Shown here in pieces: positions 39,213 to 44,618 of a stretch of DNA of 64,000 nucleotides. A model generated the notes under the pieces. That model saw only the letters and a program-made list of their open reading frames with translations, was not told the origin of the DNA and ran no database searches. Position 1 is the stretch's first letter; every line of letters starts with the position of its first letter. A program made the position numbers and the translations under genes. The stretch comes from Eledone cirrhosa (taxonomy: Eukaryota): the NCBI GenBank assembly GCA_964016885.1, contig OZ024742.1, positions 232,624,001-232,688,000 on the forward strand, given 5' to 3'.

Positions 39213-39300
39213 ATATATATATATATATATATATATATATATATATATATATATATATATATAGAAAGATTTGAATGGATACAGTTTAGTTGAAAGGAAT

Positions 39301-39420
39301 TTATTGACACGTGTTTCTATAACAGTTACATAACCTAAAACAGCTGCTATCTACAAACTTTTAGTTATGCAGACATTCAATATTTCAATGTTATTATTTA
39401 CTGTCATTTCATCAGAATAA
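39301..39420 (-). ncRNA. Hammerhead ribozyme in the inverted pLTR arm
   Basis: Mirror copy of 43940-44059. Confidence 0.85.
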
Positions 39421-40881
39421 TATTACTGAGGACCTATTTAGTTTTTATAGAGAATATTAGGAGGGAGGGGTGAAGTTGTTAGAAGAATAGTTGAAGGAGT
39501 GGTTTTTCGATAGCAGTGAGAATTCTTGGTGGCAGTGAGTAATTAGATTCCCATCTGTTGTTTTGACATTTTTTATAGAATATATTATTGGTTATTTTTC
39601 TAAATCTATAGAAGGATTAGAGATAGTAAAGATATGCGTGGTTGGTTTTGTGTTTGCACTTAATTAACATTCAGACTTAAATTTTTCTTTCAAGTGTACG
39701 TATCCTTTCACCCACGCATTCACACACAAATATATTTGCACACCTCTACAAAATACATATACTCACAATTCACATATTCATACTTACATATATATACACA
39801 TGCATACACATATATATACACACATGTATTCATGTACATACATACGCACTCATGTGTATACATTTTCATACTCAACTTATCTTTATATACACACGTATAG
39901 ACACACACATATATACATACTTACTCTAGTCCATGTGTACACACATACACATACATACACATCTATATACACATATATACATACATATACACATATATAT
40001 ATATACATATATATATATATATATATATATATATATATATATATATATATATATATATATATATATATATATATACACATACATATACATACACATATAC
40101 ATACATATATATGCACTTTAATACATGAATACACTTACATCTAACTATACACATCAAACATATATATATATTTACTTATTTATATACATTTTCACATATA
40201 TATACATACTTATGGACGTTTTTAGACACATTCATTATCGCATATTTGCACCTATTCTCATCAGCATATCTTTCCATTATTAGTGTGGTAATTTAAGGTT
40301 ATTAATATATGTTGAGAAGAGATTGTTTTTATATTTTTCTAACTAGATTAAGGTTTATATAGTTGGGGGATGTCCCTCTTTTATGTAATATTCGGCTTGT
40401 AGTGGGAAAAAAGGGTTTTAGTTCTGTGACGGCAGAATAATGTTCGTTCAATTCTGTTATTCAGCAGTTTCTTCTTGTGTGTGATTATGTAATAAATCTC
40501 AAGATTACACAATTTGCAGAAATTTTGGCTCCTGGAAAAGCTTTGGGTTTTAGCTAATTTCTCCCATTTTAGGGTAAACTTTTGATCGCTATCCCTGAGC
40601 GTCCAAGCTTTTTCTGCTAAAGTTGTTACATTTCTTTGGCTCTGGTGTTTTATTGAGTAAGAATGCCTATACAATCGAGATTTAAACGATGTTGCCGTTG
40701 ATCCCACGTAATACCACTCGTTGCCCCCGGATTTAATGGTACACTTATAAATAATATTTTTTTCCAGGCAGTTATTGCTGAGGGGGCAGTTGTCAGGATA
40801 GGTGCAGTTACAGTTGTGTACGTTGGGTTTTCTCTGGAGTAGTATTGCGGACGAACTTAGATGTGGTTTATTTATGTTCTG

Positions 40882-42971
40882 AGCAGGACCTTATGAACTT
40901 AATCCTTAAAATTAAATTCAAAGGACGCAACACCAACAGCAAATTACAGAAAGATATAAAAAAACTACTGGACGACCTTAAAAACACCAAAGGAATTGTA
41001 GTAAAAGCGGACAAAACATCAAACCTGTACACTATGGATTGCACTACATACAACAACTTCATTCGAAAAGAATTACATAAAAAATATAGAAAAACGAGTG
41101 AAGTAACCCTTAAGCACATCAATGATGAGGCATGCGAAATAGTGAAAAATCTCGGAATCGAAGATAGGACAGGACCACTCTTACCGGCGGTACCCACCTT
41201 CAATCTTAAGGACCACAAGGTAAACTTTGATAATGACCCTAAAATTAGATTAATCTGCCCCTCTAAATCAGATATAGGTAAAATAAGCAAATATATCTTA
41301 GATAGAATCATCCCCCAAATTAAGGCTAAGGTTAACATTAAACTCTGGGGGAAGACCCAAGAAGCAATAAGATGGTTTAATAGCATTAGCAATAAGAATA
41401 AATCTAAGTTTATCCAGTTTGATATCGATGAATATTACTCATCGCTATCACCTGAAACTTTGATTAGAGCCATTAAGTTTGCTAAGGATAACTCTGACCT
41501 TACAAACGATGAAATTAAGATTATATTAGAAGCTAGGAAAACTATAGTCAAATTTGAGAACAGTTATTGGGTACGTAAAGATAGACCCTCTAACTTTGAC
41601 ATAACAATGGGCTCTAACGATTCGGCGGAAATAACTGATATTGTGGGGTTATTTATCGCCTTTAGACTCCAGGAAAAATTCAGCAATCTCCACGGCGGAA
41701 TATACCGCGACGATGTTCTCCTCGTAGCTAAAAACCTTAATAACCAAAAACTAGAAAAACTACGCAAAGATATAAGAAAACTACTACTCGAAATAGGACT
41801 AACTATAACATATGAATACAACCTTAAAGTAGTTAACTTCCTGGATGTCACACTCAATTTAAACTCTGGTTTGATTAAACCGTTTCATAAATTGAATGAA
41901 AATCTCAAATACGTAAATGTTGGGTCTAACCACCCCATCTCTATAATTAAATCTATCCCTAAAAATATTTCCCTTAGAATCTCGGGTCTATCTTCTAACA
42001 TACAAGTATTTAAGGAACACGCCGAGTACTACGATAACGCCCTTAGTAAAGCAGGCTACCTCAACAAAATAGAGTACATAGATGGGAACAATCAAAACAC
42101 CCAAAATAAATCCCACATAGGTAGATATAATAACACAACACCAAACCACACTTACTACCATAGTATGCACACCAGTAAACCAACAAACAAAACTAATAGA
42201 AAGCGATGCAAAGAGTACTTATGGTATAACCCCGAATACAATAGTTCCATTAGTACAAATTTACCAGTACTCTTCTTTAAAATAATTAAAAGACATTTTC
42301 CCACATCACACAAATACCACAAAATCCTAAACCCTACCACTATAAGACTGTCATACTCTACAGCGTTAAACCTTGAACAACACATAAAAAAGATCAATAC
42401 TAGAAGGTTAAACGAAAACACTAAGAACTTAAGTACAAAGAACACAAAAAAAACAGTAGACAATACACTACAGAACATAAATAAACCACATCTAAGTTCG
42501 TCCGCAATACTACTCCAGAGAAAACCCAACGTACACAACTGTAACTGCACCTATCCTGACAACTGCCCCCTCAGCAATAACTGCCTGGAAAAAAATATTA
42601 TTTATAAGTGTACCATTAAATCCGGGGGCAACGAGTGGTATTACGTGGGATCAACGGCAACATCGTTTAAATCTCGATTGTATAGGCATTCTTACTCAAT
42701 AAAACACCAGAGCCAAAGAAATGTAACAACTTTAGCAGAAAAAGCTTGGACGCTCAGGGATAGCGATCAAAAGTTTACCCTAAAATGGGAGAAATTAGCT
42801 AAAACCCAAAGCTTTTCCAGGAGCCAAAATTTCTGCAAATTGTGTAATCTTGAGATTTATTACATAATCACACACAAGAAGAAACTGCTGAATAACAGAA
42901 TTGAACGAACATTATTCTGCCGTCACAGAACTAAAACCCTTTTTTCCCACTACAAGCCGAATATTACATAA
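40882..42971 (+). CDS. Penelope-type reverse transcriptase + GIY-YIG endonuclease (5' truncated, otherwise open)
   Basis: KADK, KDHK, FDIDEYYSSL, MGSNDS, YRDD, FLDVTL; Cys motif CNC..CPL..C; IIYKC..YYVGST..FKSRLYRH; C-terminal CKLC..CRH. The first 12 codons of the track ORF come from the inverted arm. Confidence 0.93.
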
Positions 42972-43939
42972 AAGAGGGACATCCCCCAACTATATAAACC
43001 TTAATCTAGTTAGAAAAATATAAAAACAATCTCTTCTCAACATATATTAATAACCTTAAATTACCACACTAATAATGGAAAGATATGCTGATGAGAATAG
43101 GTGCAAATATGCGATAATGAATGTGTCTAAAAACGTCCATAAGTATGTATATATATGTGAAAATGTATATAAATAAGTAAATATATATATATGTTTGATG
43201 TGTATAGTTAGATGTAAGTGTATTCATGTATTAAAGTGCATATATATGTATGTATATGTGTATGTATATGTATATGTGTATATATATATATATATATATA
43301 TATATATATATATATATATATATATATATATATATATATATATATATATATATATATGTATATATATGTGTATATGTATGTATATATGTGTATATAGATG
43401 TGTATGTATGTGTATGTGTGTACACATGGACTAGAGTAAGTATGTATATATGTGTGTGTCTATACGTGTGTATATAAAGATAAGTTGAGTATGAAAATGT
43501 ATACACATGAGTGCGTATGTATGTACATGAATACATGTGTGTATATATATGTGTATGCATGTGTATATATATGTAAGTATGAATATGTGAATTGTGAGTA
43601 TATGTATTTTGTAGAGGTGTGCAAATATATTTGTGTGTGAATGCGTGGGTGAAAGGATACGTACACTTGAAAGAAAAATTTAAGTCTGAATGTTAATTAA
43701 GTGCAAACACAAAACCAACCACGCATATCTTTACTATCTCTAATCCTTCTATAGATTTAGAAAAATAACCAATAATATATTCTATAAAAAATGTCAAAAC
43801 AACAGATGGGAATCTAATTACTCACTGCCACCAAGAATTCTCACTGCTATCGAAAAACCACTCCTTCAACTATTCTTCTAACAACTTCACCCCTCCCTCC
43901 TAATATTCTCTATAAAAACTAAATAGGTCCTCAGTAATA

Positions 43940-44059
43940 TTATTCTGATGAAATGACAGTAAATAATAACATTGAAATATTGAATGTCTGCATAACTAAA
44001 AGTTTGTAGATAGTAGCTGTTTTAGGTTATGTAACTGTTATAGAAACACGTGTCAATAA
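43940..44059 (+). ncRNA. Type I hammerhead ribozyme with ~90-nt stem II region
   Basis: TTATT-CTGATGA-AATGACAGT...ACTGTTATA-GAAA-CACGTG-TC-AATAA; predicted cleavage after C44054. Confidence 0.85.
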
Positions 44060-44618
44060 ATTCCTTTCAACTAAACTGTATCCATTCAAATCTTTCTATT
44101 TTTCTCCGGATTACTTTTGGAACTACAACTGGAACCGTCGAGCAAACTCTACGTGAGCTGATAATCTACTGTGTGTAATATTTATATTACAATACAACGG
44201 AAAATACTGTATATATATATATATATATATATATATATATATATATATATATATATATATATATATATATATATATATATATATATATATATATATATAT
44301 ATTTATATATATATGTGTGTGTGTGTATGTATATTCACATATATACATACATGAATTAGATATATATATATATTCAATAATTCCCTAATTATCCACACGC
44401 CCACCTATCATACGTTCGATGATTTTTCTTCATGAATGAACAAACATGAAGACACATACATAGAGACCAACATACGAATGTGACTACGTCAGCTGGCTGT
44501 GACGGAATTGCAAACGCCCACCTAACGAATATCACGAAGCCATCTATATTTGTGTGTATAAACACGCGACCGGACACACGCACACAGCCTCAAATGACCG
44601 ATATCGATATGTGACACA

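Follow-up and report, generated by a model that had tools for sequence, protein, structure and literature searches.

What kind of element produced the large inverted repeat near the middle of this Eledone cirrhosa DNA (contig OZ024742.1 of assembly GCA_964016885.1, positions 232,624,001 to 232,688,000; this whole stretch of 64,000 nt is called the window), and could it mobilise the small hammerhead ribozyme elements around it? The repeat at 39213-44302 accompanies an open reading frame (ORF) for a reverse transcriptase (RT) joined to a GIY-YIG endonuclease (EN). Our analysis indicates that it is very probably a young, dead-on-arrival insertion of an uncatalogued family of Penelope-like elements (PLEs) of the Hydra clade, formed by the mechanism proposed below. 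Its parts are the following.

39213 to 39260, no strand: left (TA)n target tract, common to the neighbouring element E4
39261 to 40881, minus strand: inverted copy, more heavily 5'-truncated, with the last 166 codons and the 3' region but without the tail
40880 to 40881, no strand: head-to-head junction with a putative 1-2 nt microhomology
40884 to 42971, plus strand: 5'-truncated ORF of 695 aa, assigned to the Hydra clade from homologs, motifs and predicted fold
42471 to 44099, plus strand: right arm, the direct copy of the upstream inverted part
43088 to 43141, plus strand: decayed hammerhead 1, 117 nt after the stop, where Hydra elements usually have theirs
43142 to 43640, plus strand: aged TA/TG microsatellite region, (TA)n being pure in its core (43279-43357); the inverted counterpart of the region is at about 39710-40210
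43945 to 43990, plus strand: decayed hammerhead 2
44100 to 44209, plus strand: 110-nt tail, on the right copy only, with a long-loop junction hairpin by pattern match
44210 to 44302, no strand: right (TA)n target tract

The reading frame is free of stops from 40884 to 42968 (695 codons, the stop ending at 42971), and the 33 same-frame codons upstream of 40884 are the inverted arm read antisense. RT residues were found at DKT 43-45 (ADKT 42-45), D180 of motif A and YRDD 274-277, followed by the thumb. A CxCx5C linker (C553, C555, C561) precedes the GIY-YIG nuclease (Y574, Y587, G589, R598, E657, N670), in which CxxC (651-654) and CxH (679-681) surround the catalytic E and N. The catalytic residues of both enzymes are all present, and C651, C654, E657, N670, C679 and H681 are invariant in 14 of 14 aligned members. 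Scoring of 8000 candidates gave 82 homologs at E<=1e-3 (best 1e-136, identity 30-44%), and a representative protein library gave 389 at E<=1e-30, of which the full-length matches are 30-40% identical; the best full-length database relatives reach 36-40%. The protein sets contained no close family copy (the best local identity was 53%, across 202 residues), and neither did the window. The AlphaFold model of the protein had a pLDDT of 87 (73-sequence alignment), and its best fold was telomerase RT (Foldseek E 1.3e-9; Z 17.5, rmsd 2.8, 260 aligned). The C-terminal 151 residues folded alone (pLDDT 77, 9 sequences) matched I-TevI (Z 8.7, rmsd 2.4, 89 aligned), T4 EndoII (6.9) and UvrC (5.9). Foldseek on the nuclease domain alone returned nothing at E<=0.001, Pfam gave no family in the ORF and nothing relevant in the 14 aligned members, and a PDB sequence search with a 14-sequence profile gave no match. 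The ORF is predicted to encode a telomerase-like RT with a GIY-YIG nuclease at its C-terminus (residues 570-681 of 695), the domain order of an EN+ PLE.

The Hydra clade is characterised by DKT, RWK, a CxCX5C linker, the lack of CCHH, CxxC and CxH by the catalytic E and N, and (TA)n targets (PMC8557442). All the Hydra diagnostics that survive truncation match the ORF, including four of the four protein diagnostics that could be scored, and the insertion into (TA)n is also as in this clade. The RW motif, present as RW[KRQE] in 77 of 99 homologs with a full N-terminus, lies in the region lost from this copy by 5' truncation. Neither the CCHH in the EN nor the DKG of Penelope/Poseidon and Nematis is present, nor is the N-terminal EN of Naiad/Chlamys, the EN here being C-terminal. 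In a tree of 45 homologs the protein grouped with P0002 and P0084 (support 0.99). Membership of the Neptune clade is highly improbable: that clade shares a Cys-rich linker before the nuclease, which a first-pass annotation had called Neptune-like, and microsatellite targeting (PMC8557442), but the Neptune rows of Fig. S7 have a CX2-5CxxC linker and paired cysteines between the Tyr motifs, whereas this ORF has CxCx5C, a single cysteine there (0-1 in 28 of the 29 homologs printed, two in one), no CCHH, DKT instead of DKG (DKG in 0 of 99 homologs, DK[TS] in 87) and, by eye, motifs B and C of the Hydra rows. Judged by its motifs, this is a Hydra-clade element of an uncatalogued family.

The two arms were aligned by blastn at 99.4% identity over 1629 columns (39261-40881, minus, with 42471-44099, plus), and 1589 nt of unique sequence separates them. 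Pairwise alignment gave 1620 paired bases with two substitutions and TA-run gaps of 2 and 6 nt; one substitution (40006/43348) is at the edge of the TA run and the other (39346/44014) in unique sequence. The TA repeat is 8 nt longer in the right arm, the pure alternating runs measure 69 nt on the left and 79 nt on the right, and a TA/TG(CA) tract is present in both arms. These results bear out the first-pass description of an upstream inverted duplicate of the 3' part of the ORF and the pseudo-long terminal repeat (pLTR), with arms differing mainly in (TA)n length plus at least one substitution and with TA/CA microsatellites in the pLTR. The repeat of 1.6 kb also stood, but the ORF is not wholly inside it, as the last 166 codons belong to the arms.

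The element has (TA)n on both sides (39213-39263 and 44210-44302), in agreement with the expectation of TA-enriched flanks. The right copy extends 110 unique nt past the arm before it reaches (TA)n, a tail that the first-pass annotation had not described, and the left arm adjoins (TA)n directly. PLEs have the pLTR in direct or inverted orientation with an optional tail, and the layout here agrees with this. At the junction of the arms, where no palindrome was noted, the last base of the left arm also serves as the first base of the conserved Glu codon (40881-40883), and the residues F and E just upstream of the frame are conserved in at least 90% of the 45 homologs. The shared base suggests that a microhomology of 1-2 nt at 40880-40881 may have joined the two copies.

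A contig scan for relatives yielded 11 loci (L001-L011; 12 confirmed of 42 candidate stretches), which lie on contigs in bacterial bins and are probably contaminating host-animal DNA. In L006, a truncated direct copy meets an inverted 3' copy at a single point, the two being identical over 758 nt, and L001, L002 and L009 contain inverted copies at 92-95%. An assembly or fold-back read artefact has in its favour that near-identical, (TA)n-rich arms are hard to assemble. Such an artefact would, however, mirror the tail and flank, whereas the left arm stops 4-7 nt before the hairpin and mirrors neither the tail, which is on the right only, nor the right flank; 36000-39212 and 44100-47500 share three short matches (an 82-nt dispersed repeat and two weak ones). 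Moreover, the unique spacer separates arms that differ at a unique site, and L006 repeats the layout in an unrelated record. An artefact is therefore highly improbable, and the inverted, 5'-truncated copy is real.

The tail opens with a candidate hairpin, seen by pattern search only: CTC at 44104, a 3-bp inner helix, a 2-nt bulge and GAG. A long-loop hairpin was placed that early in 5 of 20000 tail shuffles, a post hoc figure. Among the relatives, the hairpin occurs 11 times in seven loci, with GCTC, an inner helix that varies, a bulge of two bases and GAGC in each; 97% of the cells in their alignment pair, three pairs covary, and 0 of 500 shuffles reached the covariation score, a control that is inflated by the structure having been drawn from the same 11 sequences. 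By eye, the hairpin was also recognised in the PMC8557442 supplement: Hydra-1_Ajap has it twice at its 5' start, ahead of the ATG, and Hydra-2_Ajap and Hydra-2_Amil have it at their 3' ends. Its occurrence at both the 5' start and the 3' ends of Hydra families suggests that the tail is the start of a next unit. As a separate observation, a full-length Hydra-type copy in L007 (2646-2754 and 5143-5214) starts at the junction hairpin right after (TA)n and repeats 66 nt of the hairpin start at its 3' end.

The same hairpin occurs in the window in E1, E3 and E4, and perhaps E6. The elements discussed below are located as follows.

38968 to 39212, minus strand: E4, a non-coding miniature insertion of 245 nt that has only a hammerhead's 3' half; hairpin at 39037
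37744 to 38680, minus strand: E3, a non-LTR retrozyme with a 591-nt unit in 1.6 copies; hammerheads at 38651 and 38060, hairpin at 38322
7819 to 8030, minus strand: TA-abutting element with a canonical type I hammerhead, core at 8009
36852 to 37060, minus strand: TA-abutting element with a canonical type I hammerhead, core at 36942
46902 to 47417, plus strand: TA-abutting element with a canonical type I hammerhead, partial tandem, core at 47112
47446 to 48400, plus strand: TA-abutting element with a canonical type I hammerhead, partial tandem, core at 47935

One of the two partial tandems has inverted pieces. E4 has the same inverted-arm-plus-tail layout as the large element and shares a TA tract with it. 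In E3, 346 nt are duplicated at 100%, and its hammerhead has a UUGAUAA core (U3-A8) and a palindromic stem III; C3-G8 compensation in hammerheads has been described (PMC11167929). The covariance model R2, built from the loci only, ranked E4 (E 5e-4), E3 (0.64) and E1 (0.68) at the top of its eight matches and missed E6. The distance from the shorter copy end to CTC is 4-7 nt in the large element, 10 in E4, 6 in E3, 7 in E6 and 7 in L006. The strict hairpin pattern was not enriched in the window (4, against a shuffle mean of 2.0; 9 of 60 shuffles reached 4), and the looser one occurred 14 times against a mean of 8.2 and a maximum of 13 among 30 shuffles. Since the counts are not enriched, it is the positions that carry the argument for the hairpin. 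Overall homology to the neighbours was not detected. The four 3' segments compared with nine neighbours on both strands (72 local alignments) gave a best p of 0.005, antisense and AT-rich, as expected from multiple testing, and neither the tail against ten hairpin regions nor hammerhead 2 plus tail against five neighbours gave a p below 0.05. Words of 9-10 nt noticed by eye in the tail and in E1 and E3 were not accepted as homology, the alignments being non-significant.

Could this copy itself be the helper of these elements, as the first-pass annotation had proposed? Among the 226 homologs examined, 118 have an initial Met and an alignment that begins within the first 12 query residues; these have a median of 74 extra N-terminal residues, and 99 of them have at least 50. 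The lost part holds seven conserved columns and the RW motif, and the profile match begins at position 74 of 707, at 40881. By comparison with these homologs, the ORF is open, as had been stated, but 5'-truncated by about 74 residues, so that its length of about 696 codons does not represent the complete protein. An active helper translated from the in-frame Met at 40893 (codon 4) would have an open frame with intact catalytic residues, and E1, E3 and E4 do carry the Hydra hairpin. This Met is 12 nt beyond the potential 1.6-kb duplex and is preceded by 22 plus-strand ATGs; the element's own 5' end is absent, its transcript would fold into the duplex, and there is no significant similarity to the neighbours. 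With the N-terminus and start missing and the ORF beside a 1.6-kb fold-back, it is very unlikely that this copy acts as a helper, and it was most likely dead on arrival. Part of the proposal survives at the clade level, where Hydra-type proteins are plausible helpers for E1, E3, E4 and perhaps E6, because three or four neighbours carry the Hydra hairpin in the appropriate position. The minus strand is common to the left arm, E4 and E3, an arrangement that would allow further capture by read-through.

The 3' region of the element is 1238 nt long, and its composition is the least ordinary feature of the locus together with the hairpin shared with neighbouring hammerhead elements. Nine relative ORF ends, from 8 of the 11 loci (L004, L010 and L011 were excluded for an incomplete C-terminus), were available for comparison. 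A canonical hammerhead lies 91-194 nt after the stop in eight of them, the ninth contig ending after 112 nt, and a TA run starts 155-339 nt after the stop in four of nine. Here, the TA repeats begin 210 nt after the stop and unique sequence follows from about 43640. In two of the loci (L002, 4931-7576; L009, 359-8775), chains of hammerhead elements split by TA runs were seen, like the cluster in the window.

A hammerhead ribozyme in the pLTR is a trait that the Hydra clade has in common with other canonical PLEs. In hammerhead 1, the core is CUGAUGA, stem II has 8 bp, stem I has 4 bp and the site is GUC. In the usual numbering (C3, G8, G12), its defect is an A in place of G12, with an A-run where GAAA is expected. 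Hammerhead 2 has intact CUGAUGA and GAAA cores, a 4-bp stem II, a GUC site and a Hydra-type stem III with a 1-nt loop, and is without stem I. Since both arms share the hammerhead defects, the template already had them. Shuffling of the first 270 nt produced the relaxed hammerhead pattern in 109 of 20000 cases, and the hammerhead-2 pattern occurred in 1 of 5000 shuffles. An internal duplication as the source of hammerhead 2 was rejected, the two halves not being duplicates (45 of 500 shuffles scored as high). Rfam over 35000-52000 gave 133 sub-threshold matches, mostly to miRNA models and driven by microsatellites, and no hammerhead. These data suggest that the 3' region arose by read-through capture of a former target together with the end of a downstream element.

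Alternatively, the long 3' region may be the family's own pLTR, with a microsatellite expanded in place and a chance hammerhead at 43088. This is the strongest competing explanation: shuffling of the whole region yields the relaxed hammerhead pattern in 88 of 3000 cases, the covariance model R1 (six relatives) gives no score to 43088, and with a single family member known there is no sister copy that would show a seam. On the other hand, the position of the hammerhead fits that in the relatives (117 against 91-194 nt), the TA starts where the relatives end, described Hydra families are generally <3 kb (PMC8557442), and the two halves are not duplicates of each other. We therefore regard an origin without capture as possible but the less likely of the two, and retain capture in the mechanism below.

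The arms differ by one substitution in about 1540 non-repeat sites, or 6.5e-4 (95% interval 1.6e-5 to 3.6e-3). With the octopus calibration of a distance of 0.09 at 25 million years (PMC13282606), the insertion would be about 0.1 and at most 0.5 million years old, an estimate that takes the octopus rate and ignores gene conversion and RT error. As 336 recent Penelope-like insertions are reported in O. vulgaris (PMC13282606), recent activity is no surprise in octopus. The earlier claim of a recently active family thus stands for this one insertion; at the family level it would rest on a single copy.

The PLE PAc of Anolis carolinensis nicks both strands of AT-rich DNA and extends them, and its tail lies between two internal RT starts (PMC11167929). 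Its ribozyme needs protein help, and ribozyme cleavage is dispensable for insertion in vitro (PMC11167929). A self-priming route on an antisense template has also been proposed (PMC3846280). If the PAc mechanism applies to Hydra, a protein from an intact copy elsewhere would have nicked both strands of a (TA)n tract via its GIY-YIG domain, and two cDNAs would have been primed from element RNA, one per strand of the same tract. The left arm may come from a cDNA that started a little upstream of the junction hairpin (end 44099), and the tail from one that started 110 nt further (end 44209). Both cDNAs would have stopped early and been joined head to head at 40881 via the 1-2 nt microhomology. 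The template's 3' end would have been extended beforehand: the ancestral hammerhead (43088) decayed, and read-through then took in the ancestor's landing microsatellite and, downstream, a PLE-type end with a hammerhead (43640-44209). A fresh (TA)n tract would be deposited with every copy made from such a template. The first-pass notion of a microsatellite carrier that seeds its own targets holds in so far as the tract was carried in both cDNAs; seeding is possible, and the tract is more likely a captured former target. The inferred parts of this scheme are, besides the application of the PAc mechanism to Hydra, the microhomology, the history of capture and the hairpin's role.

Several results weigh against this interpretation. 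The clade call combines motifs with by-eye comparison of the Fig. S7 rows, and the 45 homologs in the tree are unnamed or unclassified. The ORF kept 87 of the 96 positions conserved in at least 90% of the 45 full-length homologs, which is low within the homolog range (0.82-1.0). The arm identity may also stem from gene conversion or assembly polishing. The family is known from one copy, on which the full-length unit, the origin of 43142-44209 and the activity all rest. Model R2 failed to detect the hairpin in this element's own tail. The hammerhead descriptors were written after seeing the sequence, and the statistics of hammerhead 1 are modest; the match at 43088 in the shuffle test involved a later A-run, and a separate folding was made for the GUC reading. 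Five neighbouring hammerheads fold within 0-3.2 kcal/mol of the minimum, and the forced folds of hammerheads 1 and 2 lie 7.9 and 14.3 kcal/mol above it. Hammerhead 1 was not picked up by model R1, which matched hammerhead 2 partially at E 1; the model also missed the canonical hammerheads at 47112, 38651 and 38060, and is thus too narrow to inform.

Much of the architecture has precedents. The clade, the inverted layout, the tail and the TA targeting are already published, as the first-pass annotation had recognised for inverted pLTRs at truncated 5' ends, and an octopus Hydra family, the 2507-bp Hydra-1_Obim of Octopus bimaculoides, is already named (PMC8557442). The members of the clade, including Hydra-1_Obim and Penelope-13_HM, likewise have RT and then GIY-YIG in one ORF, the Hydra motifs, (TA)n targets and a hammerhead core about 100-200 nt after the stop, and Penelope-13_HM is annotated with an inverted 5'-truncated copy as here. 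They differ in a 3' region of about 150-340 nt against 1238 nt, a length 'generally <3 kb' against at least 3.5 kb if the present element were complete, and a single canonical hammerhead against two decayed ones; the internal microsatellite and the 110-nt tail are further differences of the present element. Hydra-1_Obim is visibly a different family in the paper's alignment, by eye only.

PAc, of the Poseidon clade, also has a tail between two copy ends, an AT-rich target and an apparently dispensable hammerhead; its tail is 30-40 nt in contrast to 110 nt here, and its RT starts lie at an AC-rich stem-loop inside the ORF, whereas the present tail is non-coding and opens with a bulged hairpin (PMC11167929). 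Capture of host DNA between ORF and terminal pLTR, 0.9-1.5 kb long, has apparently occurred in Pen1_Av of Adineta vaga (PMC3846280); the spacer here is instead largely microsatellite, bracketed by two hammerhead remnants. Non-LTR retrozymes, of which E3 is one, have been proposed as non-autonomous PLE derivatives, and retrozymes in Xenopus were linked to PLE pLTRs by sequence (bioRxiv 10.64898/2026.07.22.740005). Unlike there, what links the elements in the window is a structured motif at the junction that they have in common, with no overall homology detected.

A few literature searches, with Repbase reports and subscription papers outside their scope, found no description of the hairpin. The main text of PMC8557442 contained no mention of a hairpin, stem-loop, read-through or transduction, and the retrozyme preprint (bioRxiv 10.64898/2026.07.22.740005) no mention of a hairpin or tail. 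The searches found no literature joining Penelope-like elements, transduction, a microsatellite and a hammerhead, and no biochemical study of a Hydra element in the PLE literature searched.

Other repeats were observed in the window. A TA-flanked palindromic insertion with a tail of roughly 35 nt occupies 48459-49166; each arm has a CUGAUGA half-core (48558, minus; 49098, plus), and no Hydra hairpin was seen in it. At 49470-50774, inverted repeats of 360 nt (99%) surround 585 nt and end in TA, which looks like a non-autonomous terminal inverted repeat element. A SINE-like repeat follows a second, old Hydra-type fragment, a C-terminal part with the nuclease (5921-6552, plus; profile positions 481-705, best E 1e-26), which is split across frames. 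By eye, three elements resembling LTR retrotransposons, with direct terminal repeats, were recognised (10287-15575, 17083-21475 and 24591-28624); the repeats are 98-99% identical in the first two, and stops and frameshifts interrupt the RT/integrase-like frames. At 31081-35505, direct repeats (at least 300 nt, 94%) surround a broken minus-strand LINE-like RT, which is interrupted by long TA tracts.

A wider and considerably more tentative hypothesis may be drawn from the locus. Hydra RTs may recognise the bulged hairpin, which would set the proximal RT start 4-10 nt upstream, and hammerhead elements may parasitise the clade via this hairpin and not via overall homology. The family would then have lost both ribozymes and turned into a chimera produced by read-through, which takes its former (TA)n target along and thereby seeds landing sites, helping to build the TA-array clusters of nested elements in the window. 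The nearly complete ORF and the covarying candidate cis-signal would provide a test of how a PLE RT chooses internal starts, and the same material a test of whether Hydra proteins mobilise retrozymes. The 1.6-kb duplex would be more likely to silence the family than to help it. If sister copies share the microsatellite-bearing, ribozyme-dead 3' end, the family would be a natural case for dispensable hammerheads and a retroelement that multiplies its own target.

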